Assembly (NCBI GenBank): GCA_934573735.1 | Contig: CAKTMC010000001.1 | Span: forward strand, 24,689-88,688 | DNA: 64,000 nt | Reading direction: 5' to 3' | Origin: an uncultured Oscillospiraceae bacterium | GTDB taxonomy: Bacteria > Bacillota > Clostridia > Oscillospirales > Oscillospiraceae | In this document: positions 1,616-63,966 of the stretch, piece by piece | How the letters are laid out: every line of letters begins with the position of its first letter | Position numbering within the stretch: position 1 is the first letter of the stretch | Translations under genes and position numbers: made by a program | Notes under the pieces: generated by a model | Told to the model about the DNA's origin: nothing | Databases searched by the model: none | What the model saw: only the letters and a program-made list of their open reading frames with translations

Positions 1616-2977
1616 TTAATTCTGATTATACTTGTAATAATCCGTGTCCTCGCCGCGCTCCGGGAGACGCAGCTCCGGCAGCTCGCCCGCCATGGCATCC
1701 CAGAGTGCAAAGCCGTCCTGCTCAATGGGATATATGGGCACGCCAAGCTCGCGCACGGCCTCCTCCAAGGTGATATCGTCAAGAAAATCCATCTCCTGAC
1801 GGCGCAGCATATTCTGCGAAATAAACAGCCGCTCTCCAAGCTCGCGCCCCTTGAGCTGCCTTATAAGATCCTGCCCGGTTATAAGCCCGGTGACATTGAT
1901 GCTGTGTCCGAAAAAGTCGTTGACTATCGCGTAGACCCTGCCCTTTAGCTCCGGATACTTCTCATGCGCGATATCCACAAGCTTTTGAAAATACGGCGCG
2001 GCGGATACGCCGGTCGCTATCGTAAAGGGCACGCCGTCCGGTGCGTCCGAAAGCCTGAGCGCGGAGCGAAACTCCGTCTCAAGCAGGCGCAGCATACCCA
2101 CGCCGTTTTCAAGCTGGGTGTGCTCCTCAAAAAATTCGTCCGGCGGGAACTCGCGCCCTGCCAGAATATAAAACTCGTCCCCGCAGAAGAAGATGCGCGT
2201 GCCGTGCTTTTCAAGGCACCTGTCGCCGAACTCGGTTATCATGTCCAGCGTCTCCGCCGCGTGCTCCTTTGTGAACGGCGTCAGCGGGTACAGCCCCTCG
2301 CGGAACTTCGTAAGCCCGACCGGGACTATGGAAACGCTGTGTACTCCGGGGTACATGGCCTCAAGCTCGCGCATGGTGCGCATAAGCTCCTCCCCGTCAT
2401 TAAGCCCCGGACAGCAGACTATCTGGCAGTTCATCGTGATGCCGGACTCGGCAAAGCGGCGCATGACCTCGATGGTCTCCCCGGCGCGGGGATTGCGCAG
2501 CATCTCACGGCGAAGCTCGGGATTTGTCGTGTGAACGGAGACGTTTATGGGGCTGATGTGCAGGGCGATAATGCGCTCTATCTCGCGCTTTGAAAGATTG
2601 GTGAGCGTGATATAGTTGCCGAGCAGAAAGCTCAGGCGCGCGTCGTCGTCCTTGAAGTACATGGTGCGGCGCATACCCTTCGGGAGCTGGTCTATAAAGC
2701 AAAAGACACAGTTATTCGCGCAGGAGCGCGGCGTGTCCATAAGATAGCTTTCAAACTCAAGCCCCAAATCCCCGCCGACCGTCTTGCGGACGTGTACCTC
2801 TCTCTCGCTGCCGTCGGGACGGCGGAGGACAACGTGCAGCTCGCTGTCATAGGCGAAGAATTTATAGTCGAGCACGTCAAGTATTCTGTTGCCGTTTATG
2901 GATATAACCGCATCGCCCGGGTGCGCCTTGCCGTGCAGGGGGCTGCCCCGGTCAACGGATTTGATAAGATTGTCCAT
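1616..2977 (-). CDS. Radical SAM protein with N-terminal PDZ-like domain (DUF512 family)
   Basis: CxxxCxxC motif (CANNCVFC) in translation. The ORF extends to 3028, but a GGAGGA RBS sits 2 nt before the ATG of MDNLIKSV (start 2977). Conserved position upstream of der. Confidence 0.7.
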   Translation of the reverse strand: MDNLIKSVDRGSPLHGKAHPGDAVISINGNRILDVLDYKFFAYDSELHVVLRRPDGSEREVHVRKTVGGDLGLEFESYLMDTPRSCANNCVFCFIDQLPKGMRRTMYFKDDDARLSFLLGNYITLTNLSKREIERIIALHISPINVSVHTTNPELRREMLRNPRAGETIEVMRRFAESGITMNCQIVCCPGLNDGEELMRTMRELEAMYPGVHSVSIVPVGLTKFREGLYPLTPFTKEHAAETLDMITEFGDRCLEKHGTRIFFCGDEFYILAGREFPPDEFFEEHTQLENGVGMLRLLETEFRSALRLSDAPDGVPFTIATGVSAAPYFQKLVDIAHEKYPELKGRVYAIVNDFFGHSINVTGLITGQDLIRQLKGRELGERLFISQNMLRRQEMDFLDDITLEEAVRELGVPIYPIEQDGFALWDAMAGELPELRLPERGEDTDYYKYNQN

Positions 2978-3066
2978 GTTCCTCCGAAATCGCGCGGCGC
3001 AGCCAAATGCTCTGCTCCGCATACGCAAAAGGAGGAAAGGTGCTACCCTTTCCTCCTCAAGCGTTT

Positions 3067-3255
3067 TTACTTGCTTTCCTCAACATTGATGACGGTACGG
3101 CCCTTGTACTGACCGCAGTGCTTGCAAGCACGGTGAGGCATGCAGAACTCGCCGCAGTTGGGGCACTTGACGATTCCGGGAGCGGTGAGCTTCCAGGTAG
3201 AAGAACGTCTCTTGTCACGTCTCTGTCTCGATACTTTTCCTTTTGGGACTGCCAT
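3067..3255 (-). CDS. rpmF: 50S ribosomal protein L32
   Basis: 62 aa starting [10 protein letters not shown] with a CPNCG...CKHCG zinc ribbon; classical L32 signature. Confidence 0.9.
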
Positions 3256-3296
3256 GTTGACACCTCCTGATAACAGCTGTTCTGAGCAGCTCTATT

Positions 3297-3791
3297 TTAG
3301 TCTTTATCCAAAAGCTGCTCAAGCACAGCAAATCTTGGATCAATTTTTTTTCGGCACTCACAGGGGCCGAGGTTAAGGTTTTTGCCGCAGTCGGGACAAA
3401 GACCCTTGCAGTCCTCCTTACAGAGGAACTTGCTGTCCATATCCAGAATGAAGCAGGTGGACAAAATCTCGTCCAGGTCTATTTCGTCACCCTGAAGCAG
3501 AAACAGCTCCGGATCGTCCTCGGCGTTCTCCTCCACGATGGTGGCGTGCAGCTTGGTGCGCTTGGTGCGCTCAAAGTCCGTGCCGCAGCGGTCGCATACA
3601 CAGACCAGCTCCGCCCTGATCTCACCCGTCAGGTTCAAAATCCCGGCCTCGTTATATACGCGCCCGACTGCCGTGGGCTTTGACTTATACTCCTTTATCG
3701 CGGGGAAATCAAGTCTGTCCGTCTCAAGCTCTGTCGCAAAATCGACGGAGCCGCCCGGTATCTCAATTATCTCTCTCAGGTTAAGAAGCAT
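3297..3791 (-). CDS. yceD: YceD/DUF177 family protein (23S rRNA accumulation protein)
   Basis: 164 aa with C-terminal CxxC...CxxC pairs. Lies immediately upstream of rpmF, as in the conserved yceD-rpmF operon. Confidence 0.75.
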   Translation of the reverse strand: MLLNLREIIEIPGGSVDFATELETDRLDFPAIKEYKSKPTAVGRVYNEAGILNLTGEIRAELVCVCDRCGTDFERTKRTKLHATIVEENAEDDPELFLLQGDEIDLDEILSTCFILDMDSKFLCKEDCKGLCPDCGKNLNLGPCECRKKIDPRFAVLEQLLDKD

Positions 3792-3901
3792 AATACACCT
3801 CGCATAGTCGCTTAGATATTATAGATTAACTGACAAGGCTTGTCAACAGAAATTTTCTATAGTATAATAAAAAAACAGAAAAAAAGAAAGGTTTTTACCT
3901 C

Positions 3902-4882
3902 ATGGGTATGAAAGAAATCACAATAAAAGCCAATGACGCCGGTCAGAGGCTCGATCGCTTTGTCGGAAAGGCCGTTCCGCTGCTGCCGGAGTCGCTGCTG
4001 CAAAAGTATATTCGTCTCAAGCGCATCAAGCTAAACGGCAAAGGAGCCAAGCGCGACACGCGGCTCAGTCTCGGCGATACACTCCAATTATACATCAACG
4101 ACGAGTTTTTTGAAAGACCCCGCGAAGAAAATTCTTATCTCAAGGTCGGCACTCCGAGGCTGGATATCGTCTATGAGGACGAGAACATTCTCCTTGTGGA
4201 CAAAAAGCCGGGCGTGCTGTGCCACAGCGCGGGCGTATGGGATTATAACACGCTCATCGCAAACATTCAGGCGTACATGGCGCAGAAGGGCGAGTGGCGG
4301 CCGCGTGAGGAGAATTCCTTTGCCCCCGCGCTATGCAACCGCATCGACCGCAACACCGGCGGCATCGTCATCGCCGCGAAGAACGCCGAGGCGCTGCGCA
4401 TACTCAACGAGAAGATACGCGACCGCGAGATAGAAAAGTATTATCTCTGCGCCGTGCAGGGCAAGCCCAAGCCCGCCTGCGGGCGGCTTGAAAACTATCT
4501 TTTCAAGGACGCGGAGAAAAACAAGGTCTACGTCAAGTCCCGGCCGGAGCCGGGGGCGCGCACGGCGGTGACGGAGTACCGGGTGCTGTGCTCAAAGGGC
4601 GCGCTCTCCCTCGTCGAGTGCCGCCTGCTGACCGGGCGCACGCATCAGATACGCGCTCAGATGGCTCATGCGGGCTGGCCGCTTTTGGGCGACGGGAAGT
4701 ACGGGGTGGAAAAGCTCAACCGCAGCTTCGGCGAAAAGGGTCAGGCGCTCTATTCGTACAGGCTTGAGTTTGCCTTTCCGACCGACGCCGGCTGTCTCGA
4801 ATATCTGCGCGGGCGCGAGTTTCGCGTGAAGAGCGTGGACTTTGCGGAGAAATACTTCGGCGTGAGCAAGCTGGAATTCTAA
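3902..4882 (+). CDS. RluA-family 23S rRNA/tRNA pseudouridine synthase (RluC/RluD-like) with S4 domain
   Basis: N-terminal S4-like RNA-binding region, catalytic HRLD-like block (NRIDRNTGG), C-terminal TGRTHQIR motif. Confidence 0.8.
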   Translation: MGMKEITIKANDAGQRLDRFVGKAVPLLPESLLQKYIRLKRIKLNGKGAKRDTRLSLGDTLQLYINDEFFERPREENSYLKVGTPRLDIVYEDENILLVDKKPGVLCHSAGVWDYNTLIANIQAYMAQKGEWRPREENSFAPALCNRIDRNTGGIVIAAKNAEALRILNEKIRDREIEKYYLCAVQGKPKPACGRLENYLFKDAEKNKVYVKSRPEPGARTAVTEYRVLCSKGALSLVECRLLTGRTHQIRAQMAHAGWPLLGDGKYGVEKLNRSFGEKGQALYSYRLEFAFPTDAGCLEYLRGREFRVKSVDFAEKYFGVSKLEF

Positions 4883-4913: not shown

Positions 4914-6521
4914 ATGCTTAGTGTAAACGATTTATCCATGCAGTTCGGCTCGTCCGTCCTGTTCTCCCGCGTTGACCTGCAATTCACCGCCGGCAACTGC
5001 TACGGCATCATCGGCGCGAACGGCGCGGGCAAATCCACCTTTATCAAAATTCTTTCCGGTGAGCTGGAGCCTACCTCGGGCAGCGTCGTGCTCGACCCGA
5101 AGCGCCGCATGTCCGTCCTCAAGCAGAACCAGAGTCTCTTTGACGACTACACCGTGCTCGACACGGTCATCATCGGCAACCAGCGTCTCTACGACTGCGG
5201 CAAGGAGAAGGACGCGATATACGAGAAGGAGGACTTCACCGACGAGGACGGTATTCGCGCCGCAGAGCTTGAGGAGGAGTTCGCGGAGCTCGGCGGCTGG
5301 GAGGCGGAGTCCGATGCGGGGCGTATTCTTCAGGGACTCGGCGTGGACGTGAGCCTGCACGAGAGCCTTATGCGCGACGTTGACCCGCGCCTCAAGGTGA
5401 AGGTCTTGCTTGCGCAGGCGCTGTTCGGGCATCCGGACGTCATACTGCTTGACGAGCCTACGAATAACCTTGACCTTGCAAGCGTCGTCTGGCTTGAGGA
5501 CTTTTTGATGGATTACGAGGGCACCGTCCTTGTCGTCAGCCATGACCGCTACTTCCTCAATAACGTCTGCACTCATATCGTGGATATCGACTACGGCAAG
5601 ATAAAGATGTATATCGGTAACTACGACTTCTGGTATGAGTCCAGCCAGCTCATCCAAAAGCTCATAAAGGACCAGAACAAAAAGGCGGAGCAGAAAATTC
5701 AGGAGCTTCAGACCTTTATCGCCCGCTTCTCCGCAAACAAGTCGAAGTCGCGTCAGGCGACCTCGCGCCGTAAGCTGCTGGATAAGATAAGCGTCGAGGA
5801 GCTGCCCGCCTCAAACCGCCGCTACCCCTGGGTGGGCTTCAAGGCCGAGCGTGAGCCGGGCAAGGATCGCCTCTTTGTCACCGAGGTCAGCAAGACCGTG
5901 GACGGCGTAAAGCTTTTGGATAACGTGAGCTTCATCGTCGGCAAGGAGGATAAAATAGCCCTTGTCGGCAAAAACGAGCTTGCGGTCACGATGCTGTATA
6001 AGATACTCATGGGCGAGGAGGAGCCGGACAGCGGCAGCGTCAAGTGGGGCGCGTCCATCAGCCCGGCATACTTCCCCAAGGACAACGGCGCGTATTTTGA
6101 CGGCTGCGAGCTTGACCTCATCGACTGGATGCGCCAGTTCTCGGAGGATAAGCGCGAGAGCTATCTGCGCACCTTCCTCGGACGTATGCTCTTCTCGGGC
6201 GACGACGTGTATAAGACCGTCAAGGTGCTCTCCGGCGGCGAAAAGGTGCGCTGTATGCTCAGCCGTATGATGCTCTCGGGCGCAAACTTCCTGCTTTTCG
6301 ACCAGCCGACGAACCATCTCGACCTTGAGAGCATCGCCGCGCTGAATAACGGCATGGAGGCCTTTAAGTATAATATTATTTTCTCTTGCCACGACCATCA
6401 GCTCACCCAGACCGTCGCAAACCGCATAATCGAGGTCACCGATACCGGCATAATCGACCGTATGTGCAGCTACGACGAGTATATGAACATAAGCGATTTG
6501 GAGTCGGGGATAAGAGAATAA
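4914..6521 (+). CDS. ABC-F family ATPase (tandem ABC domains, no TMD), housekeeping type with short interdomain linker
   Basis: 535 aa; two Walker A motifs (GANGAGKST; GKNELAVT degenerate second site), two LSGGE signature motifs, short (~45 aa) basic linker. The short linker is unlike the long ARE-type linkers of antibiotic-resistance ABC-F proteins. Confidence 0.8.
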   Translation: MLSVNDLSMQFGSSVLFSRVDLQFTAGNCYGIIGANGAGKSTFIKILSGELEPTSGSVVLDPKRRMSVLKQNQSLFDDYTVLDTVIIGNQRLYDCGKEKDAIYEKEDFTDEDGIRAAELEEEFAELGGWEAESDAGRILQGLGVDVSLHESLMRDVDPRLKVKVLLAQALFGHPDVILLDEPTNNLDLASVVWLEDFLMDYEGTVLVVSHDRYFLNNVCTHIVDIDYGKIKMYIGNYDFWYESSQLIQKLIKDQNKKAEQKIQELQTFIARFSANKSKSRQATSRRKLLDKISVEELPASNRRYPWVGFKAEREPGKDRLFVTEVSKTVDGVKLLDNVSFIVGKEDKIALVGKNELAVTMLYKILMGEEEPDSGSVKWGASISPAYFPKDNGAYFDGCELDLIDWMRQFSEDKRESYLRTFLGRMLFSGDDVYKTVKVLSGGEKVRCMLSRMMLSGANFLLFDQPTNHLDLESIAALNNGMEAFKYNIIFSCHDHQLTQTVANRIIEVTDTGIIDRMCSYDEYMNISDLESGIRE

Positions 6522-19927: not shown

Positions 19928-20020
19928 CAAGCCGGAAAATGCCCCGCCGCGGACAGGTGGTCATAAGACAGTTTCATAAAGCCACATGATAGGATTAAAC
20001 AAAGCAATAGGTCGGAATGA

Positions 20021-20445
20021 TAAAGGGCGCACTTCTATACACCCTTCGGTGTACCGCGCGAGCATCCCTTGCCTCTCCCTTTGGGAGAGGTGGCCGAGCG
20101 CAGCGAGGACGGAGAGGGCAAACAATGACCATACCAAAAGACAACACCCAATTAGAAAATGCCCGACGGCTTTGCAGGGAGATGACACCCCACGAACGTA
20201 AGCTCTGGTATCTTTTTCTCCGCAAATATCCAGTAAAAATTTACAAGCAGCGGATTATAGGCAGATTCATTGTGGACTTTTACTGCGCTTCGGCCAGAAA
20301 GGCTGCAAGACCCTCTCAGTCACCTGCGGTGACAGCTCTCCCAAGGGGAGAGCCAAGGGGTTGTACTCTTTACATAGTATGTTGCATAAGAAATGGAGCG
20401 TGTCTTTATCGATACGCTCCATTGACTGTTTTATGAGCACCCTTG
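20021..20445. repeat. Dispersed hairpin-rich repeat, copy A (about 425 bp including a 175-bp DUF559-fragment insertion)
   Basis: The 5-prime module 20021-20126 and 3-prime module 20302-20445 are about 90% identical to 43868-43980 and 44003-44150. Internal palindromes TACACCCTTCGGTGTA, CCTCTCCCTTTGGGAGAGG, GTCACCTGCGGTGAC and AATGGAGCGT-N12-ACGCTCCATT. Confidence 0.8.
20125..20301 (+). pseudogene. Truncated DUF559 (Vsr-like endonuclease domain) gene fragment embedded in repeat copy A
   Basis: MTIPKDNTQLENARRLCREMTPHERKLWYLFLRKYPVKIYKQRIIGRFIVDFYCASARK matches the N-terminal half of DUF559 proteins (LRKNMT..E..LW..LR......FRRQ..IG.YIVDFYC). The reading frame then runs into repeat sequence. Confidence 0.6.
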
Positions 20446-20610
20446 CAGCTGCGGCGGGGCATTTTCCCTCTCATTCACAAAATCATTTCCGATTGTTCAA
20501 AAATATTTGCGCATTTGTTCATTTGGAGTACATAAATGCATTGTATCTTATAATCACAAACAAAAGCAAGGCACAAAGCCAAGCCCCATAAGCCAAAAGA
20601 GGTCTTTAAT

Positions 20611-41226: not shown

Positions 41227-41331
41227 GCCCGCTCTTCATCAATAATCTGAATAATGCTGAAAAAACTCCGCATGGCAAGCCATACGGAGTTTTTAATGCT
41301 ATATATGCTATATGTATTTCCCAGCAGGAAA

Positions 41332-43479
41332 TCAGATGATCATATCAACGAACTTCTCAATGCCCTGATTGTTGCCGTTGATGGCCATGCAGACATCCCA
41401 AGCGCGCCAGATAACGGTACGCAGGTTGCCGATTGCAACGCAGTCGCCGACACGGAAGATGGTCTCCTTGCCCTTGACCTTCTTGGAGGCAGTCTTGCCG
41501 CCGACCGGGGTGGGAACGAAGCCGATGCCGTTGACAACGCTGTCGCACTCGACGAAGAAGGTCTCGCCGGTCTGAACGTTCTTGACGGTGCAGCCCTTGT
41601 CGGTGATCTCGGTAACGGTGGAGTGCAGGTAAACGGGAACCTTGTGGTACTCCATGGCGTCACGCAGGAAGGAGGTATTGGCAAGACAGGTCGCCTGAGC
41701 CGCGATAAGGTCGCCGGCGTACTCGACGATGATCGGGTGCTTGCCGAAGTTCAGCAGCATGTCGTAAGCCGCCTCGCAGGAGGACTGGCCGCCGCCGATG
41801 AACAGAACCTTGTCGCCGACTTCCTTCTTGTCCTTGAGAACGTCGGTAAAGGTGAGGGTCTTCTCGAAGCCCTTGATCTGGGGCATCATTCTGGGGGTAG
41901 AACCGGTAGCGACGATGATATCGTCGAAGCCGCGGAGCGTGTTCAGGTCGTTGACCTCGGTGTTCATGTGAACCTCGATGCCGGCCTTCTCGATCTCGCG
42001 CTTGTACCAAGTGATGAGCTCCTTGTCGTTCTCTTTGAAGGTCATTGCGGAGGCAGTCAGGAACAGACCGCCCAGCTCATTGGTCTTCTCGAAGAGGACA
42101 GGGATGTTGCCCTGCTGCTTGAGGACGAGCGCACATTCCATACCGCCGATACCGCCGCCGATGATGGCGACTCTCTTGGCCTTCTTGGTGGGTGCGATGT
42201 AGTATCTCTTATGCTGCATGGTGGTGGGGTTCAGAGCGCAGCGGCCAAGATGCAGGGAGTCCATGGTGTTCTGGAGGTTCGAGGTGCCCTTGTACTTTGC
42301 GAAGTTGAAGCAGCCGTTGTGGCAGCGGATGCAGGGCTTGATCTCGTCCTGACGTCCTTCTTTTATCTTATGTACCCACTCGTGGTCGACGAGGTTCTGA
42401 CGGGCGATGGCAACTGCATCGAGACGGCCGGCGGCGATCTCCTCAGCGGCCTTGACAGGATCCATACGGCCTGCGCAGACGACGGGAGCGTTGGTGAAGT
42501 TCTTGATGTGCTCAACGTACTTCAGGTTGCAGTTGTCGGGCATATACTGAGGCGGATGTGCCCAGTACCATGCGTCGTAGGTGCCGTTGTCGCAGTTGAA
42601 CATTGCGTAGCCGGCCTCCTCGAGGTACTTGACAGCCTTCTCGGACTCTTCCATGTCGCGGCCGAACTCCTCGAAGTCCTCCTCGTAAGGCATAGCGCCC
42701 TTGCCCCAGCCCTTGGTCTTGGAGACAACGGAGTAACGCAGGGAGACGGGGAAGTCGTCACCGGCATACTCGTGGATGCACTTGACGATCTCGACGGGGA
42801 AGCGGAAGCGGTTCTCGAAGGATCCGCCGTACTCGTCGGTACGGAAGTTCCAGTTCTTCATGGTGAACTGGTCGAGCAGGTAACCTTCATGGACAGCGTG
42901 AATTTCGACGCCGTCAACGCCTGCATCGCGCAGCTTCTTCGCGGTCTTACCGAAGGCCTCGACCATTTCCTTGATCTCGGCACGGGTCATGGGACGGGAC
43001 TTGAGATCCTCGTTCCAGCGGTTGGGGGTAGCGGAGGCGGAGGCGCAGGAGTACTGAACGTCAACGATGGGGGAAGCGAGCTTGTTGAGGAAGTCGTGCT
43101 TGGCAAGGTAGCTCATCCAGCCGTTGATAGCCATGGAGCGGCCAAAGCCTGCTGCGAGCTGAATGAACAGCTTGGAGCCGGTCTTGTGGAACTCCTCCAT
43201 GTAGGGCTTGAGTTCTTTGAACATGCGGTCGTTCTGCCAGAGCCACTTGCGGCCGGGGATACCCATGGTATCACGAACGCACTGCATACCGGGGAGGATC
43301 AGGCCGACGCCGTCCTGCGCGCGGTTGAGGAGGAAGTATGCGGCCTCCTTATCGAAGTGGTTGGGCTCCAGCCAGCCGAAGAGAGAGGTACCGCCCATGG
43401 AACACTGAACTATGCGGTTGGGAATCTCCACATTGCCAATCTTCCACGGAGTAAATAGGGCATTATACTTTTCGTCCAT
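41332..43479 (-). CDS. Old-yellow-enzyme-family FMN oxidoreductase fused to FAD/NAD(P)-binding oxidoreductase (2-enoate/2,4-dienoyl-CoA reductase-like, 4Fe-4S)
   Basis: 715 aa; TIM-barrel OYE N-domain, Cys cluster CIRCHNGC, then GGGIGG dinucleotide-binding motif and a second Rossmann motif. Confidence 0.85.
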   Translation of the reverse strand: MDEKYNALFTPWKIGNVEIPNRIVQCSMGGTSLFGWLEPNHFDKEAAYFLLNRAQDGVGLILPGMQCVRDTMGIPGRKWLWQNDRMFKELKPYMEEFHKTGSKLFIQLAAGFGRSMAINGWMSYLAKHDFLNKLASPIVDVQYSCASASATPNRWNEDLKSRPMTRAEIKEMVEAFGKTAKKLRDAGVDGVEIHAVHEGYLLDQFTMKNWNFRTDEYGGSFENRFRFPVEIVKCIHEYAGDDFPVSLRYSVVSKTKGWGKGAMPYEEDFEEFGRDMEESEKAVKYLEEAGYAMFNCDNGTYDAWYWAHPPQYMPDNCNLKYVEHIKNFTNAPVVCAGRMDPVKAAEEIAAGRLDAVAIARQNLVDHEWVHKIKEGRQDEIKPCIRCHNGCFNFAKYKGTSNLQNTMDSLHLGRCALNPTTMQHKRYYIAPTKKAKRVAIIGGGIGGMECALVLKQQGNIPVLFEKTNELGGLFLTASAMTFKENDKELITWYKREIEKAGIEVHMNTEVNDLNTLRGFDDIIVATGSTPRMMPQIKGFEKTLTFTDVLKDKKEVGDKVLFIGGGQSSCEAAYDMLLNFGKHPIIVEYAGDLIAAQATCLANTSFLRDAMEYHKVPVYLHSTVTEITDKGCTVKNVQTGETFFVECDSVVNGIGFVPTPVGGKTASKKVKGKETIFRVGDCVAIGNLRTVIWRAWDVCMAINGNNQGIEKFVDMII

Positions 43480-43867
43480 TTGGTTCTTCCTTTCTATTCC
43501 TTCTTATTATGCGGCGATGCTTTCAGATTTTTCATCTGCCGTTTTTACTGATCCGGGTTCGTGCTTAATCAGCGATATATAAATAGTATAGCACAGGAAA
43601 TTAAAATTTGCAATTATACAAGTGTGTTGTATTGTATAACATTTTGTTGTTTTTGCCTATCAAATGCAGCGCGCTAATATGAAAATACCACACTATATAT
43701 GAATTTTCAAGCACGAGATGCATGCATTTTTTGAAGTATTCTCCCCTACTCCGTTCATATGCTCAAGTAAGCCGGGCTGCACCCGCCAAAGCGCGTCATG
43801 CGCCGCACAAGCGACAGGCAGCGTCTGCCGGAGCTTATCTCCATTGAGCAGTAAACTCCAATTTGCC

Positions 43868-44150
43868 GAGCTGATAAAGAGCGCGTTTCTATACACCTTT
43901 CGGTGTACTGCGCGAGCATCCCTTGCCTCTCCCTTTGGGAGAGGTGTCCGAGCGCGGCGAGGACGGAGAGGGTAAACAATAATATCGACAGGGATTTCCG
44001 TAAAAGGCTACAAGACCCTCTCAGTCACCTGCGGTGACAGCTCTCCCAAGGAGAGAGCCAAGAGGCTGCACCCTTTACATAGTATGTTGGCATGAGAAAT
44101 GGAGCGTATCTGTATCGATACGCTCCATTGACTGTTTTATGAACACCCAT
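43868..44150. repeat. Dispersed hairpin-rich repeat, copy B (about 283 bp, no cargo)
   Basis: Matches both modules of copy A with only a 22-bp spacer between them; same internal palindromes. Confidence 0.8.
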
Positions 44151-44180
44151 CTAAGCAAGCAGAGCTTTTGTTTGTATTTT

Positions 44181-61121: not shown

Positions 61122-61197
<76 letters not shown>

Positions 61198-61378: not shown

Positions 61379-62653
61379 TCAGAGCTTTGCCTTTTCGCCC
61401 TCGGGCGCGACCTTGACGAGCACACGCTCGACACGCCGGCCGTCCATGGCAAGCACCGTGACCGTCATGTTCCTGAAGCTGAAGCTGTCGCCCTCCTTGG
61501 GGAAGCCGCCGAACATCTCAAGCGTCCAGCCGCCGACGGTGTTGCTCTCAGCGTCAAAATCGTCCTCATTCAGACCGACAAGCTCAAGAAAATCGGAGAG
61601 TATCATCGCGCCGTCAAGCTCATATTCGCTTTCCTCGCGCTGCACGACCTCATGCTCGACCACGTCGCTCTCGTCCCAGATATCACCGACAATCTGCTCA
61701 AGCACGTCCTCCATGGAAACTACGCCCAGCGTGCCGCCATACTCGTCGGACACAATGGCGAGGTGCTGCTTTGCCTTGCGCAGAGTATTGAGCACGGCGG
61801 GCAGCTTCATGGTTTTATAGACATAGCAGGGGGGCATCAAAAGCTTACGGACATCGGCGCGGCCGTCATCCGCCAGAGCCTTGAGAAAATGATTCAGATA
61901 AAGGATACCGATGACATTATCAATGCTGCCCTCATAGACAGGCAGACGTGTGAAGGGCGCATCCTCGACTATGGCAAGAATTTCCTCCCAATCGTCCTCA
62001 ATATCTATCGCCTGAACGTCCACGCGCGCGGTCATGACCTCAAACGCCGAGGTTTCGGAGAAGTCTATCGCGGCCTGCACAAGCTCGGACTGATCCTCAT
62101 CGAGAACGTCCTCGTCCTCGGCAGTCTCGATTATCGACTGAAGCTCCTCAACGGCCTCATCGGAGGCGTCGTCACTGTCCGCAGGCTTGATGCCGCGGGT
62201 CATGAGGTTGATAAGCGAAACGACCAGCCACACAAGAGGATAGAATATTATCATCATCGTGCGGACGACGTAGGCATTTTTGAGCGAGGTGCGGTTTGCG
62301 TTCTTCTTGGCGCTAATCTTCGGCATCGTCTCGCCGAAAATAATGACAAGCAGAGTCAGAATAATCGTTGCAAGCCATGTATATTCTGTCTCGCCGGTCA
62401 CAAGAAAGACCGCAACGGAGGCAAGCGACGAGGCGCCGATATTTGCAAGGTTATTGCCGATAAGTATTGCGCTGAGTGCATCGTCAAAGTGCTCTGCGAT
62501 GTACACCGCAGCCTTTGCGCGCTTTGAGCCGCCGTCCCGCGCACCTTCAAGGCGCATGACATTGCACGACGAGAACGCCATCTCGGACGCGGAGCAGAAG
62601 TTCGACAGGCACAGGCACAGGAAGATGCCTATAAATACAAGAGCCGTATTCAC
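61379..62653 (-). CDS. CNNM/HlyC/CorC-family transporter (DUF21 TM domain + CBS pair + CorC_HlyC)
   Basis: 424 aa with an N-terminal 4-TM DUF21 region, two CBS motifs and a C-terminal transporter-associated domain. Confidence 0.8.
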   Translation of the reverse strand: MNTALVFIGIFLCLCLSNFCSASEMAFSSCNVMRLEGARDGGSKRAKAAVYIAEHFDDALSAILIGNNLANIGASSLASVAVFLVTGETEYTWLATIILTLLVIIFGETMPKISAKKNANRTSLKNAYVVRTMMIIFYPLVWLVVSLINLMTRGIKPADSDDASDEAVEELQSIIETAEDEDVLDEDQSELVQAAIDFSETSAFEVMTARVDVQAIDIEDDWEEILAIVEDAPFTRLPVYEGSIDNVIGILYLNHFLKALADDGRADVRKLLMPPCYVYKTMKLPAVLNTLRKAKQHLAIVSDEYGGTLGVVSMEDVLEQIVGDIWDESDVVEHEVVQREESEYELDGAMILSDFLELVGLNEDDFDAESNTVGGWTLEMFGGFPKEGDSFSFRNMTVTVLAMDGRRVERVLVKVAPEGEKAKL

Positions 62654-63966
62654 TGAGCCTCGCCTCCCTTCTCCTCGGGCACGAGCGCGACCTTGAGCTT
62701 GAGTATGCGGTTATGCTCCATCTCTGTGACCGTGACCCTGAGCCCGTGATACTCAAAGCTCTCGCCGGCCTTGGGAATGGCGGAGAACTGCTCATATGCC
62801 CATTCGCCCATGAGCGTATTGACAAGCTCCTCGTTCTCCTCGGGATCCTCAAAGTCGAAAAGCTCAAACACGTCGCTGACGGACTGATCCGCATCGACCA
62901 CATAGCTTCCGTCCGGAAGCGCAACGACCGGCTCCTCGACAATGTCCTCCTCATCCCATATTTCGCCGACAAGCTCCTCAAGAATATCCTCGACCGTGAC
63001 AATGCCGAGTGTGCCGCCGTAGTTATCCGTGACAACGGCCATGTTCAGCTTGCGCTTGGACATGACGGGCAGAAGCTCGTCGATATTCATGCTGTGATGG
63101 ACGAAAAACGCCTCGTCGAGCAGGGGGCGGATGTTCAGATCGTTGCCTTGACGGAGATATGCCTTGATAAAGCGGCGTATCTGAAGGATGCCGATAATAT
63201 TGTCAATGCTGCCCTCATAGACCGGCAGACGGCTGTGGGGCTGATTTTTTATATAAGCGAGAATTTCCTCATGGCTGCTGGCGATATCCACGGCGGCGAG
63301 GTCAACTCTCGGCGTGAGCACGCTTTCAACCGTGACCTCGCCGAACTGAAGCGCAGAAGAAATCAGGTCGCCCTGCTCCTCGTCGAGGCTGCCCTCCTCG
63401 GTCATGTCCTCTATCATGTCGTAAATCTCGTCCTCGGTCATCGAGGTCTCCCCGTCGCCGGGGGTGAGCCTTGCCGCAGCCTGACCTATCTTTGTCAGAA
63501 GCCTTGAAAGCGGACCGAACAGCTTCATGAAGAACAAAAGCACGCCCGAGCAGGCCTTTGCAAAGCGCTCACTGTACTTTTTCGCAATGCTTTTCGGGAG
63601 CATTTCGCCCGCAAAAAACACGACGATGGTTGTGACAATGGTGCTGACAGACACGGCGCTCAAGCCCCACAGCCGCGTGACCGCGACAGTCACCAGCGAG
63701 GCCGTGGCAATATGTACGATATTCGTACATATCAGCAGAGTGCTGATAGCCATGTCAAAGTTATCAAGAATGTACATTGCTCTTTTCGCGCCGGGCTCAC
63801 CGCGCTCGGCGGCGACCTTCATCTTTGTGCGCGAGGCGGAGGCAAACGCGGTCTCGGCCACGGCAAAGAACATTGCGCAGAAAAGCAGCGCAACTGCGAT
63901 TATCCAGGGGGTAAGCTCGGGCGGGGCCTGAGCTGCCATTTCCGGCAATCGACTGCCATCATCCAT
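62650..63966 (-). CDS. CNNM/HlyC/CorC-family transporter, tandem paralog
   Basis: 438 aa with the same architecture. Its stop overlaps the downstream paralog start (ATGA). Confidence 0.8.
   Translation of the reverse strand: MDDGSRLPEMAAQAPPELTPWIIAVALLFCAMFFAVAETAFASASRTKMKVAAERGEPGAKRAMYILDNFDMAISTLLICTNIVHIATASLVTVAVTRLWGLSAVSVSTIVTTIVVFFAGEMLPKSIAKKYSERFAKACSGVLLFFMKLFGPLSRLLTKIGQAAARLTPGDGETSMTEDEIYDMIEDMTEEGSLDEEQGDLISSALQFGEVTVESVLTPRVDLAAVDIASSHEEILAYIKNQPHSRLPVYEGSIDNIIGILQIRRFIKAYLRQGNDLNIRPLLDEAFFVHHSMNIDELLPVMSKRKLNMAVVTDNYGGTLGIVTVEDILEELVGEIWDEEDIVEEPVVALPDGSYVVDADQSVSDVFELFDFEDPEENEELVNTLMGEWAYEQFSAIPKAGESFEYHGLRVTVTEMEHNRILKLKVALVPEEKGGEAQ

Follow-up and report, generated by a model that had tools for sequence, protein, structure and literature searches.

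What are the two hairpin-rich stretches that lie beside htrA and polC in the 64-kb window analysed here, the whole stretch of DNA taken from an uncultured Oscillospiraceae bacterium, and why does their middle part differ? A sequence-only reading had described a short, dispersed, MITE-like element with definable ends in two intergenic copies with flanks about 90% identical, whose modules are joined by a 22-bp spacer in one copy and separated by a 175-bp DUF559-coding segment in the other. These observations could be confirmed. The window holds just two copies, copy A (19956-20441) and copy B (43843-44154), and the modules common to both are 89-93% identical: the left module at 20005-20126 in copy A matches 43859-43980 in copy B with 89% identity, and the right module matches in two parts with 93% identity each (20298-20384 with 44003-44089, and 20384-20442 with 44090-44148). 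The spacer of copy B is found at 43981-44002. Copy A lies between an ABC-2-type permease ORF (stop codon 19925-19927) and an HtrA-like protease gene (20611), copy B has on one side an enoate-reductase-like gene and on the other polC, which faces it with its 3' end (stop codon 44181-44183, minus strand), and the orientation relative to the neighbouring genes is opposite for copies A and B.

Two stretches of about 270 nt with about 90% identity cannot be alike by chance, and a segmental duplication of flanking genes, which had been considered as a possible origin, is excluded because the flanks of the two copies are unrelated. In same-species contigs both sites are occupied, identically. Sister species, with HtrA 81-91% identical, lack the element at the htrA site and have a different upstream gene, and polC relatives at 96%, 89% and 87% lack it and have non-homologous terminators. 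Among these same-species contigs, sister species and polC relatives, only absences and no exact empty site were recovered.

Copy A, together with the host sequences that enclose it, is built as follows.

19934-19950, + strand: left half of a split host hairpin, GGAAAATGCCCCGCCGC, perfect complement of 20451-20467
19956-19972, + strand: left terminal inverted repeat, GGTGGTCATAAGACAGT, 88% complementary to 20425-20441
19977-20037, + strand: left internal region, of which 19977-20023 matches a segment in the loci L106 and L044
20038-20053, + strand: hairpin H1, TACACC-CTTC-GGTGTA, kept in most window-type copies
20066-20118, + strand: module P' (BoxC/PIT-like; compared with the TM-ECO table of PMC4666352), opening with CCCTTG
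20072-20079, + strand: pyrimidine block of P', CCTCTCCC, then TTT
20083-20090, + strand: purine block of P', GGGAGAGG
20092-20110, + strand: variable hairpin hp1' of P', a GCGCAGC mini-hairpin whose flanking positions would oppose G to A
20111-20118, + strand: mirror purine block of P', GGAGAGGG, doubling as Shine-Dalgarno sequence 6 nt before the ATG
20125-20298, + strand: truncated DUF559 ORF, residues 1-58 of 126, with a deletion junction at about 20298 and a frameshift
20311-20358, + strand: module P, inverted partner of P', ending with CAAGG
20311-20317, + strand: box CCCTCTC of P
20319-20333, + strand: hairpin hp1 of P, GTCACC-TGC-GGTGAC, containing the original TGA stop (20330-20332)
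20335-20353, + strand: hairpin hp2 of P, GCTCTCCC-AAG-GGGAGAGC
20392-20423, + strand: terminator-like hairpin H2, AATGGAGCGTGTC-N6-GATACGCTCCATT, a 13-bp stem, then GACTGTTTTA
20425-20441, + strand: right terminal inverted repeat, ACTGTTTTATGAGCACC, pairing with 19956-19972
20451-20467, + strand: right half of the split host hairpin, GCGGCGGGGCATTTTCC, complement of 19934-19950

Hairpins H1 and H2 had been recognized before; the inverted repeat between left and right modules, the extension of copy A leftwards to 19956-19972 and the enclosing 17-bp stem had been missed. The left and right modules can pair with each other as an imperfect inverted repeat of about 50 nt, and, as an inverted repeat in DNA should, the element gives predicted folds of equal strength for the two strands (z -6.9 and -7.2). 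The left half of the host hairpin begins 7 nt past the stop codon of the upstream ABC-2 permease ORF and is target DNA outside the element; homology with the sister species restarts at about 20467-20475, just right of the right half. The segment matched in L106 and L044 is located there upstream of a GNAT gene that follows the left terminus and precedes the DUF559 cassette. The left boundary of this cassette (...CAATAGGTCGGAATGATAAAGGGCGC) starts at about 20005 in copy A. Part of the promoter-like TTGCAT-17-TAGGAT of L106 has been lost from copy A, and a promoter scan found no sigma-70-like promoter in this copy. Copy A also makes a spurious extended ORF of 139 aa (20017-20436).

Copy B is shorter.

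43843-43891, + strand: left edge, with the last codons (IEQ*) of the GNAT gene of L106/L044 and the cassette left boundary (AAACTCCAATTTGCCGAGCTGATAAAG...)
43892-43907, + strand: hairpin H1, TACACC-TTTC-GGTGTA
43920-43972, + strand: module P', with Y block 43926-43933, R1 43937-43944, hp1' 43946-43964 and R2 43965-43972
43973-44015, + strand: DUF559 gene remnant, start codon gone (AATAAT), NIDRDFR joined to KRLQDPLSHLR*
44016-44063, + strand: module P, with box 44016-44022, hp1 44024-44038 and hp2 44040-44058 (one mismatch)
44098-44129, + strand: hairpin H2, with a perfect 13-bp stem
44131-44154, + strand: right terminus, ACTGTTTTATGAACACCCATCTAA, identical in L091 and 98% identical in L047, L078 and L106
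44155-44170, + strand: GCAAGCAGAGC then TTTTG, interpreted as one remaining half of the hairpin that terminates polC

Past the right terminus, the flanks of L091, L047, L078 and L106 diverge from copy B. As the left terminus is absent, copy B is 5'-truncated, and the joining of NIDRDFR to KRLQDPLSHLR* indicates two internal deletions.

The variable middle is explained by intact units, which occur in 12 other Clostridial genomes and consist of the left module, a gene for a 126-aa DUF559 protein (a Vsr-like nuclease) and the right module. The intact ORF reads MTIPKDN...RFSNRDIDRDF...PLSHLR*, its Shine-Dalgarno sequence lies inside the left module, and its last codons and stop lie inside the right module. 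The notion that one copy carries cargo must therefore be reversed: as the intact ORF spans from left to right module, the DUF559 piece in copy A is no insertion but a leftover of the element's own gene, and the 22-nt "spacer" of copy B is likewise an ORF remnant (NNIDRDFRK) from the C-terminus of the same gene. Left and right cores are 416-420 nt apart in intact units; this distance has shrunk to 247 nt in copy A and to 97 nt in copy B, with 58 and about 8 DUF559 codons left, respectively. The middle between the modules thus varies because independent deletions have removed parts of a protein-coding gene.

The intact protein matches the DUF559 profile PF04480 with E=6.6e-29 over profile positions 3-106 of 109 and PDB 3HRL with E=1e-12. 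The 175-nt insert of copy A, starting with the ATG at 20125, encodes the N-terminal 58 residues and still matches PF04480 with E=4e-9 (positions 3-54 of 109). In intact proteins of six lineages, D51, E62, D64 and H68 of the active-site region (xDF...ExDG..H) are conserved; the remnant in copy A retains D51 and lacks the other three, and copy B retains none of the four. With these residues mostly or wholly missing, both copies are pseudogenes, whereas the intact genes are under purifying selection (dN/dS 0.079). Copies A and B are non-functional, internally deleted relics of one small DUF559 cassette type and, judging by their sequences, encode no active nuclease; today they would be at most extra hairpins or terminators beside htrA and polC. 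No stand-alone defence family was matched in the defence and phage libraries, which gave only weak domain-level matches to DpdF, a methyl-directed REase and phage homing or HNH proteins.

The element is not confined to the two window copies, a case that had also been considered at the outset. A 24-mer is found at no fewer than 118 loci of other genomes, in Faecalibacterium, Oscillospiraceae, Christensenellaceae, Monoglobus and others, often at contig ends, and the family comprises 7,754 protein clusters, some with thousands of members; gut Oscillospiraceae and their Clostridial relatives contain it in great abundance. The element shares 88-96% identity with copies from genomes in which the other genes reach at most 75% in the comparison with the window. 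For each intact copy there are about 4.5 deleted ones (54 versus 12), and 31 of 126 right-core instances fit neither arrangement, all of these class counts being biased by the choice of the Clostridial loci by a DNA pattern from the right module. Loci picked by protein similarity instead have the same anatomy. An identical 76-nt deletion form is present at six places in the MAG SUG1403 and a 74-nt form at three loci of another MAG, and units also occur in tandem arrays. The excess of deleted copies, the recurrence of identical deletion forms at different loci of one genome and the arrays together indicate that the derivatives multiply as non-autonomous, MITE-like elements. Only four matches were found among 2.9 million viral contigs, and phages are consequently not the main carrier. 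The plasmid collection contained no close relative; all its matches were below 60% identity, and they served as a sample of distant homologs.

How the Clostridial unit is delimited and where it settles can be seen from its ends. Like a MITE, copy A has 17-nt terminal inverted repeats (19956-19972 and 20425-20441, 88%), and its left terminus is also found in five other units (L026, L051, L106, L113, L036); copy B has the right terminus only. The termini follow the consensus GGGTGnTCrTAArACAGT; apparent lone termini in L083 and L169 turned out to be spurious matches inside coding sequence. In general, the unit consists of terminal inverted repeats of about 17-24 nt around the cassette, which is either on its own or preceded by a GNAT or MazG-like gene. 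Around copy A there is a perfect, locus-specific 17-bp stem (19934-19950 and 20451-20467), a run that none of 500 shuffles reached. The same split-hairpin layout, each time with a different hairpin sequence, was observed in four of the five other two-terminus units; five of the six units have perfect complementary runs of 10-17 nt outside the termini, equalled by 0-1 of 500 shuffles. The unit therefore lodges in GC-rich terminator hairpins just downstream of genes. Copy A has split the terminator that follows the ABC-2 permease gene. With copy A and four other loci of this layout as models, 44155-44170 is likely the remaining half of the polC terminator, in whose remains copy B would sit; the partner arm of this half and the left end of copy B are both missing. 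Because the targets are palindromes and the flanks are hairpin halves, a target-site duplication is ambiguous, with possible values from 0-3 bp (L026, L051) to 10 bp (L113).

The same termini and split-hairpin placement are found on units that carry XRE-HTH plus DUF6442 and lack DUF559 (L036, L054), so that placement in terminators need not depend on DUF559. A transposase bounded by these termini was not found in 1.3 Mb of related DNA. The Clostridial units resemble MITEs and MICs in being short (about 0.4-1.2 kb), in having terminal inverted repeats, variable or no passenger genes, internal-deletion derivatives and many copies, and in lacking a transposase. Unlike these, they have no known parent IS that shares their ends in those 1.3 Mb, and they enter stems or loops of terminator hairpins instead of a short sequence motif. 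Several IS elements are known to enter palindromic repeats or hairpin loops, such as IS1397 and ISKpn1 in REP loops, ISPpu9 and ISPpu10, and IS621. For ISPpu9, a location in REPs is stated in PMC8450116. As with these, the Clostridial unit lies inside a pre-existing GC-rich hairpin whose halves flank it, but the IS elements are autonomous with known transposases, whereas the Clostridial units lack one and use ordinary terminators that vary from locus to locus. Integron attC-type cassettes were also considered and dropped, as the repeats bracket the gene rather than trail behind it and no integrase context was seen.

Within the cassette, P' in the left and P in the right module are imperfect inverted copies of one BoxC/PIT-like module. 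Each comprises a pyrimidine/purine hairpin (CCTCTCCC/GGGAGAGG), a second hairpin that is kept in structure and varied in sequence, and a GAGAGGG/CCCTCTC box that mirrors the purine arm of the module. The left box is the ribosome-binding site of the DUF559 gene, and the right box overlaps its last codons. For hp1, 57 sequence variants were collected, roughly half with perfect stems of 5-10 bp and mostly with G-N-A loops. Inspection by eye of the intact copies revealed no clear co-variation of hp1' type with DUF559 protein clade.

BoxC/PIT (potential intrastrand triplex)/TM-ECO repeats occur in many bacteria, among them E. coli (Bachellier et al.; Hoyne & Maher; Holder et al. 2015, PMC4666352). 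They share with the window module the succession of a pyrimidine block, a short loop, a complementary purine block and a second, mirroring purine block, and in both window copies this second block (GGAGAGGG) mirrors the first exactly. In E. coli the motif reads CCCTCTCCC-TGT-GGGAGAGGG-CCG-GGGTGAGGG, in the window CCTCTCCC-TTT-GGGAGAGG...GGAGAGGG. Both kinds are intergenic, multi-copy and widely distributed, often form inverted pairs and have no neighbouring transposase; the two window copies are intergenic, and several copies per genome are found elsewhere. Unlike BoxC/PIT, the Clostridial module has a variable hairpin of 15-23 nt between the purine blocks (19 nt in the window copies), and its modules stand as an inverted pair around a gene or gene remnant, whereas the published descriptions of BoxC/PIT consulted here mention no associated gene. 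E. coli has 23 BoxC loci, and the repeat that adjoins ycjD, its DUF559 gene, is copy no. 9 of the BoxC/PIT/TM-ECO repeats of Holder et al. (PMC4666352). A link between the DUF559 family and BoxC-like repeats was not found in the searched literature.

Beyond Clostridia, DUF559 genes with such neighbouring repeats are found in Deinococcus, in alpha-, beta- and gamma-proteobacteria and in cyanobacteria. Hairpin repeats stand on both sides of the DUF559 gene in five of eight distant loci (two of Deinococcus and one each of Sphingomonas, Picosynechococcus and Neisseria); they are one-sided in E. coli and Sinorhizobium (downstream only) and in Azospirillum (upstream only). For seven further distant loci, the flanking inverted repeat exceeded all of about 170 control positions in four. 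Over all 15 loci, repeats are one-sided in three, and in three others there are only short hairpins nearby, a long flanking inverted repeat being absent. Within 250 nt of DUF559, the frequency of pyrimidine/purine hairpins is raised 9-fold (P=3e-8).

We consider this explanation probable as a whole: copies A and B are relics, and DUF559 may be the element's own hairpin-acting enzyme. The second part taken by itself, that DUF559 acts on the P'/P hairpins as RAYT does on REPs, is inferred and has somewhat less than an even chance. In this mechanism, DUF559 would recognize the modules with pyrimidine/purine hairpins at either end of the cassette, most likely in extruded or single-stranded form, and nick there, and nicking would lead to copying of the cassette, and of gene-less derivatives in trans, into hairpin-forming intergenic sites. 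The ribosome-binding site GGAGAGG may pair with CCTCTCC in P' or CCCTCTC in P, which would keep the nuclease silent on read-through transcripts. The logic would be that of REP/REPIN and RAYT with another enzyme fold. RAYTs are HUH Y1 transposases, typically single-copy and vertically inherited, and REPs carry a GTAG or CGTC tag. In both systems, one small nuclease gene is flanked by inverted short hairpin repeats, which are also dispersed as singlets and inverted doublets, mostly downstream of genes, with compensatory stem variation and BIME-like arrays of alternating orientation. Unlike RAYT, the DUF559 enzyme is of the PD-(D/E)XK Vsr-like type and its unit is multi-copy, decays by internal deletion and has signs of horizontal spread, and neither P nor P' has a visible GTAG or CGTC tag. 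With another enzyme and no tag, the cassette may work like REP/REPIN-RAYT but does not belong to it.

Vsr and Vsr-like homing endonucleases, which have the same PD-(D/E)XK fold and belong to the same family as DUF559, offer precedents for nicking at specific sites and for selfish homing; their clade also contains a homing endonuclease of a group I intron (PMC3424549). These differ from the present case, where the function of DUF559 is putative, there is no intron or intein context, and the insertion sites are diverse rather than one conserved gene. DUF559 genes are also 14-fold enriched among predicted inversion targets (PMC9881135). Tentatively, we extend the proposal to the view that DUF559 (the YcjD family) would be the dedicated nuclease of the BoxC/PIT/triplex-motif repeats from Clostridia and Deinococcus to proteobacteria and cyanobacteria and, by recognizing the pyrimidine/purine hairpin or its triplex or single-stranded form, would drive their spread and rearrangement, copies A and B being dead members of the Clostridial branch. 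Next to RAYT and REP, this would be a second partnership of the kind, with an unrelated mechanism.

As alternative to an enzyme of the element's own, the unit with its terminal inverted repeats could be a MITE or MIC that is moved in trans by a hairpin-loop-targeting transposase. DUF559 with P'/P would then be one passenger cassette among several (GNAT, MazG, XRE plus DUF6442), P' and P would only control the expression of a potentially toxic nuclease by ribosome-binding-site sequestration and mRNA stabilisation, and dispersed P and P' would be decay products. Units with the same termini and split-hairpin placement and cargo other than DUF559 agree with this, as does the position of the box GGAGAGGG 6-7 nt before the ATG, where it can pair with CCTCTCC or CCCTCTC. 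Copy A without a promoter-like site would fit read-through expression, and passengers not selected for mobility would readily acquire internal deletions. However, the transposase was not among the 1.3 Mb of related DNA, and units bounded by P'/P and devoid of these termini multiply as well (the SUG1403 form, the tandem arrays and doublets in Faecalibacterium). The recurrence of DUF559 with hairpin repeats in phyla that lack these termini is not predicted by a lineage-specific passenger, and the strong purifying selection on the intact gene also argues against one. We regard this alternative as rather unlikely.

It is improbable that the modules are instead structural DNA or RNA selected in the host as terminators, mRNA stabilisers or triplex/quadruplex recombination hot spots, which spread by ordinary recombination and at whose unstable spots DUF559 is merely frequent. 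H2 is predicted to be a good intrinsic terminator and copies lie directly after stop codons. BoxC/PIT/triplex-motif repeats are moreover linked with genome rearrangement, which Holder et al. found elevated at these loci, with no transposase, integrase or mobility function nearby (PMC4666352). Yet such a host function leaves unexplained the fixed register around the DUF559 ORF, in which P' supplies the ribosome-binding site and P the stop codon, over a range that extends from Clostridia to Sphingomonas and E. coli. It also does not account for the 88-96% identity between otherwise much more divergent genomes or for the deletion series, and PIT elements lacked promoter or terminator activity in earlier work, as this is cited in PMC4666352.

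The earlier suggestion of a palindrome-associated element (PATE), with modules derived from IS200/IS605 ends and moved as single-stranded DNA by a Y1 TnpA, is effectively refuted. The element is indeed hairpin-rich and intergenic and hp1 conserves a strand-specific G-N-A loop, but there is no TnpA or TnpB in or beside 12 intact and 6 composite units, the units enclose DUF559, alone or together with GNAT or MazG, they end in terminal inverted repeats instead of asymmetric subterminal hairpins, and no HEARO/omega-RNA or other Rfam match was found. At gathering score, Rfam (15) gave a single match in the whole window, a tRNA at 61125-61197 that is irrelevant to the element, and at E up to 10 nothing relevant for both copies (best match whalefall-1, with 18 bits against a gathering score of 37). 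That the element is a structured ncRNA whose insertion point varies, or a leader that regulates htrA or polC in cis, is hardly credible despite the strong predicted fold (z about -7) and compensatory changes in hp1, as the opposite strand folds equally well, no Rfam family is matched, close relatives have the element neither upstream of htrA nor downstream of polC, the middle was once a protein gene and has decayed, and A and B are opposite in orientation to their neighbours.

BoxC/PIT/triplex-motif repeats have been on record since the 1990s, with hundreds of genomes containing them, and DUF559 is among the commonest uncharacterised bacterial nuclease families. The elements themselves fragment gut-metagenome assemblies, as many copies lie at contig ends, and they create spurious extended ORFs such as the one in copy A. 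They insert into terminators beside essential genes, where they may alter termination or mRNA stability. If DUF559 and the repeats belong together, each would explain the other: DUF559 would gain a candidate substrate, and the repeats would have both a candidate enzyme and an explanation of their origin, as cassettes that have decayed or are not autonomous.

The two look-alike intergenic stretches of the window, copy A (19956-20441) and copy B (43843-44154), share a left module (20005-20126 and 43859-43980, 89% identity) and a right module (20298-20442 and 44003-44148, 93% identity), and they are the sole copies of the repeat within the 64 kb. Since their outer flanks are unrelated, they do not represent a segmental duplication. 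Copy A is found between the genes of an ABC-2-type permease and an HtrA-like protease, and copy B between an enoate-reductase-like gene and polC. Between its modules, copy A carries 175 nt with an ATG at 20125, which code for residues 1-58 of a DUF559 protein (PF04480, E=4e-9, profile positions 3-54 of 109). The corresponding 22 nt of copy B read NNIDRDFRK, in a frame that runs to a stop within the right module. The sequence-only reading had described the repeat, the content of both copies, two hairpins and the placement beside htrA and polC, and all of these are found as claimed. The feature is therefore real and was correctly spotted, but it was partly misread: the DUF559 piece is not cargo but what is left of a gene that belongs to the element itself, and the supposedly empty copy is the further decayed one. 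Two other observations concern the window at large. An 81-nt direct repeat at 61878-61958 and 63161-63241, its two units 1.28 kb apart and 77% identical, probably stems from paralogous coding sequence and has no connection with the cassette. A 734-aa ORF at 41254-43458 (+) lies antisense to the 715-aa enoate-reductase-like gene at 41332-43479 (-), the one that Pfam supports, and is almost certainly no more than a shadow ORF in high-GC coding DNA.

The modules can be described by their partners P' and P, in which hp1' and hp1 denote the variable hairpins.

P', left-module partner: CCCTTG, CCTCTCCC-TTT-GGGAGAGG, T, hp1', G, GAGAGGG
P, right-module partner: CCCTCTC, A, GTCACC-TGC-GGTGAC, A, GCTCTCCC-AAG-GGGAGAGC, CAAGG

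P is an imperfect reverse complement of P', and in the minimum-energy fold of copy B the left module pairs with the right one over ~50 nt (z=-6.9), so that the two are not independent. The opposite strand folds equally well (z=-7.2), as is expected of an inverted repeat at the DNA level, which leaves the suggestion of a structured ncRNA unsupported. The 5' arm of the first hairpin of a module is always all-pyrimidine and the 3' arm all-purine, and the terminal box GGAGAGGG mirrors this purine arm exactly. Only three perfect pyrimidine/purine hairpins exist in the 64-kb window, all inside copies A and B. Among 226 instances, hp1 has 57 different sequences, about half of which form perfect stems of 5-10 bp, mostly with G-N-A type loops (for example GTCACC-gca-GGTGAC, CATCGC-gca-GCGATG, CAAAAATC-ttc-GATTTTTG and GGCGC-ggga-GCGCC). 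The modules are thus under structural selection. The hp1' of the window has a GCGCAGC mini-hairpin inside and scores as a 2-bp stem, less than shuffled controls; the flanking positions can be read as tandem G.A mismatches.

The origin of the copies follows from the intact form. One genome per bacterial species was scanned with a 24-nt stretch of P that is the same in A and B, which gave matches in taxa that include Faecalibacterium, Oscillospiraceae, Ruminococcus, Christensenellaceae, Monoglobus, Dysosmobacter and Acutalibacteraceae, commonly several per genome and many at contig ends. The distances between P' core and P core comprise a class of 416-420 nt and a continuum of 55-492 nt. Eleven of the 12 intact cassettes belong to that class, with one (locus L020) at 391 nt, and all 12 contain an intact ORF beginning MTIPKDN, which has 126 codons in ten of them and mostly ends ...RFSNRDIDRDFRGVCEQID...RLQxPLSHLR*. 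In these cassettes the P' box lies 6-7 nt upstream of the ATG, and the final six codons and the TGA are inside P. The product is a canonical stand-alone DUF559 protein (E=6.6e-29) akin to E. coli YcjD, with 3HRL as the nearest solved structure. Its residues D51, E62, D64 and H68 are kept from Clostridia to Deinococcus, Neisseria and cyanobacteria; of these, the remnant in the window retains D51 alone. A median dN/dS of 0.079 at dS 1.23 (41 pairs) indicates strong purifying selection, and hence a working gene and not drifting baggage. In copy A, the core distance is 247 nt, with everything past codon 58 gone and a frameshift; in copy B it is 97 nt, with the start codon gone and ~8 C-terminal codons left. 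We are highly confident that both are relics of a DUF559 cassette from a dispersed family. The 139-aa ORF at 20017-20436 (+) crosses P', the DUF559 remnant and then the frameshifted P and H2 (the terminator-like hairpin of the right module), and is an artefact that the repeat creates. A similar N-terminal extension is seen in many 'proteins' of 150-220 aa that databases list for the cassette family.

Copies in other genomes are 88-96% identical, although the remaining DNA there is at most 75% identical to the window. A protein search returned 7,754 clusters at 90% identity, and throughout the best 120 the identity to the query is 83% or higher. Some of the clusters comprise thousands of sequences, chiefly on contigs <2 kb, a bias to be expected of an assembly-breaking repeat. 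The 126 P-core instances form a deletion series with 12 intact cassettes, 54 internally deleted ones and 16 'inward' doublets (P-spacer-P'); a further 13 are interrupted by contig ends, and 31 conform to neither arrangement. The same deletion form can occur at different loci of one genome, such as one of 76 nt that is present at six places in MAG SUG1403 and one of 74 nt at three loci of a second MAG, which shows that gene-less derivatives multiply. A tandem array at L229:950-2330, [P'-remnant-P][P'-DUF559-P][P'-remnant-P], with one intact DUF559 gene, explains the inward doublets as junctions between neighbouring units, whose alternation resembles that in BIMEs. The ~105-nt deletion form of the remnants in this array recurs in L023, L050 and L116 and seems to represent an evolved, non-autonomous form. 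On the minus strand of L089 (~2630-3900), single modules are amplified in tandem, with ~9 repeats of the P' hairpin region, one every 58-62 nt, and three of the whole right module, one every ~154 nt. In same-species contigs both sites are occupied and unchanged. Sister species lack the element near htrA, with homology picking up again at ~20467-20475, and in polC relatives (96%, 89% and 87% identical) polC is followed by nothing but plain terminators. Of the sequence-only expectations, the further copies were recovered (at least 118 matching stretches across related genomes), but the empty sites were not, as these sister-species htrA and polC-relative sites gave absences and no exact empty site, the intergenic surroundings not being conserved. 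Several lines thus speak for a mobile or selfish family.

The expectation that ends could be defined held for copy A, which extends on the left beyond the coordinates first proposed.

19934-19950: left outer arm of copy A, GGAAAATGCCCCGCCGC, 7 nt past the permease stop codon
19956-19972: left terminus of copy A, GGTGGTCATAAGACAGT, inverted partner of the right terminus
20425-20441: right terminus of copy A, ACTGTTTTATGAGCACC, pairs with 19956-19972
20451-20467: right outer arm of copy A, GCGGCGGGGCATTTTCC, perfect complement of the left arm
44131-44154: right terminus of copy B, followed by GCAAGCAGAGC+TTTTG

The outer arms form a perfect 17-bp stem with an A-run ahead and a T-run behind, and copy A hence splits a terminator hairpin. 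The same ~17-24-nt termini enclose units of 0.5-1.2 kb at loci L026, L051, L106, L113 and L036. A split hairpin, with different sequence, is present in four of the five other units having both termini, with perfect arm runs of 14 nt in L113, 12 in L026 and L106 and 10 in L036 (reached by 0-1 of 500 shuffles); the arms of L051 pair imperfectly, with a 6-nt perfect run that 70 of 500 shuffles reach. As L026 and L051 have near-identical interiors and different arms, the arms are target DNA. Since the targets are palindromes, the flanks would fit a target-site duplication of anything from 0-3 bp (L026, L051) to 10 bp (L113). The GCAAGCAGAGC+TTTTG behind copy B can be read as half of the polC terminator. 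Copy B has no left terminus and its homology starts at 43843 in the last codons of a GNAT gene, so that it is left-truncated besides being internally deleted; in L106, L044 and L227, a GNAT gene lies between left terminus and DUF559 cassette. In L106, an imperfect ~22-nt direct repeat (GCAATAAGTCGGAATAATAAGG / CCAATTTGCCGAACTGATAAAAG; 3975-4040 and 3480-3520, minus) is found on either side of this gene, and in copy A its first version is joined directly to the cassette, which may mean that cassettes are gained or lost here by recombination. The window thus contains two dead repeat-cassette copies, lodged in terminators beside htrA and polC.

Units in L036 (5757-6770) and L054 (~5040-5705) have the same termini and split-hairpin placement, and contain genes for an XRE-type HTH and a DUF6442 membrane protein without DUF559. 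The termini are therefore separable from DUF559, and the terminator-lodging shell serves as a carrier whose contents can be exchanged; L026 and L051 have a MazG-like gene ahead of DUF559. There are two layers, an outer terminator-lodging unit of variable content and an inner P'-DUF559-P cassette, and the latter multiplies without the former, as in the SUG1403 form, the arrays and the Faecalibacterium doublets. A search of 1.3 Mb of related DNA revealed no transposase enclosed by these termini.

The pairing of DUF559 with hairpins reaches beyond the Clostridia. Annotated plasmid and chromid records supplied distant stand-alone DUF559 genes of 34-50% identity. Those of Deinococcus proteolyticus and D. 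psychrotolerans have arms of 56 nt (complementarity 95% and 98%) directly adjoining the start and stop codons, and these arms include CCTCCCCC-GCAA-GGGGGGAGG. In Sphingomonas, two complete P-spacer-P' doublets flank the gene, the 3' end of which runs into box and hairpin like in Clostridia. The Neisseria gonorrhoeae gene is flanked by CCTCTCCC-TGT-GGGAAAGAG-TTA-GAGAGAGGGCAACAAGC (window counterpart GGAGAGGGCAAACAATG), and Picosynechococcus has repeats on both sides, Azospirillum only upstream and Sinorhizobium sp. K101 only downstream. Seven more loci with 12-kb context were compared with ~170 control positions; the flanking inverted repeat exceeded all controls in four (Deinococcus sp., Sphingobium, S. 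meliloti with 114-nt arms, and Qipengyuania), and six have a perfect pyrimidine/purine hairpin near DUF559. Within 250 nt of DUF559, 12 such hairpins were counted against 1.4 expected, a 9-fold enrichment (P=3e-8). Two Clostridial loci picked by protein similarity and not by DNA motif have P' at -49 or -53 and P at +3. In L216, L209, L214 and L217, a lone DUF559 gene, antisense in three of the four and each bracketed by inverted repeats, sits inside a catabolic operon, which is hpa in two species of Deinococcus, paa in a further one and liu in Sphingobium. Such a placement has the look of an inserted selfish gene. In Photobacterium sp. GJ3 (L215:6700-7960), 13 perfect hairpins of the CTCCCCCTTGAAAAGGGGGAG type are arrayed from ~350 nt downstream of DUF559 onwards, with further copies at +53 and +201. 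The DUF559 domain fused within a 1,621-aa protein of a Pseudanabaena BREX-6 locus (L220:4882-9747) is a different, defence-associated use of this nuclease domain.

As a mechanism, the DUF559 nuclease would recognise the pyrimidine/purine hairpin modules and nick there, and would so help to copy the cassette itself and, acting in trans, its gene-less derivatives. This follows the same logic as REP/REPIN-RAYT systems, with a DUF559 enzyme in place of RAYT, and we propose it tentatively. The GGAGAGG ribosome-binding site may in addition pair with CCTCTCC or CCCTCTC, so that the nuclease would be silent on read-through transcripts. According to the main rival explanation, a putative hairpin-targeting transposase would move a terminal-inverted-repeat unit in which DUF559 and its modules are passengers. 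The units with XRE cargo and the same termini fit such a view, but the DUF559-hairpin pairing recurs in phyla without those termini, and we consider this rival somewhat less likely than the nuclease mechanism. The derivation from IS200/IS605 ends or PATEs that had been put forward found no support.

In E. coli, the ycjD ORF ends within a CCCTCTCCC box, and a ~44-nt near-duplicate of its 3' end (ETVLENIRQGLNR...; L207:782-825) just downstream shows that a decayed second DUF559 cassette accompanies the intact gene. This second C-terminus remnant is followed by CCCCTCGCCCCTCTGGGGAGAGGGTTAGGGTGAGGGG. Of 5,426 complete E. coli genomes, 5,411 contain matches to a 216-nt segment with that motif, at a median of 10 places each. 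The motif is the BoxC/PIT/TM-ECO 'intrastrand triplex motif', and the one downstream of ycjD is copy #9 of 23 in MG1655. It occurs in >260 genomes, always intergenic and at loci more rearranged than controls; remnants of transposases or integrases were never found, and ycjD and DUF559 are not mentioned (Holder et al. 2015, PMC4666352). A passage in Di Nocera et al. describes some REP super-families as missing a dedicated transposase (PMC3733652). In a survey of PD-(D/E)XK enzymes, DUF559 shares a clade with Vsr and with a group I intron homing endonuclease (PMC3424549). 'DUF559 domain-containing protein' is 14-fold enriched among predicted targets of programmed inversion (PMC9881135), exactly what inverted repeats overlapping ORF ends would yield. 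No link between the DUF559/YcjD protein and repeats was found in the literature searched by full text. The DUF559/YcjD family and the BoxC/PIT-type repeats apparently form an undescribed partnership, which is open to simple experiments.
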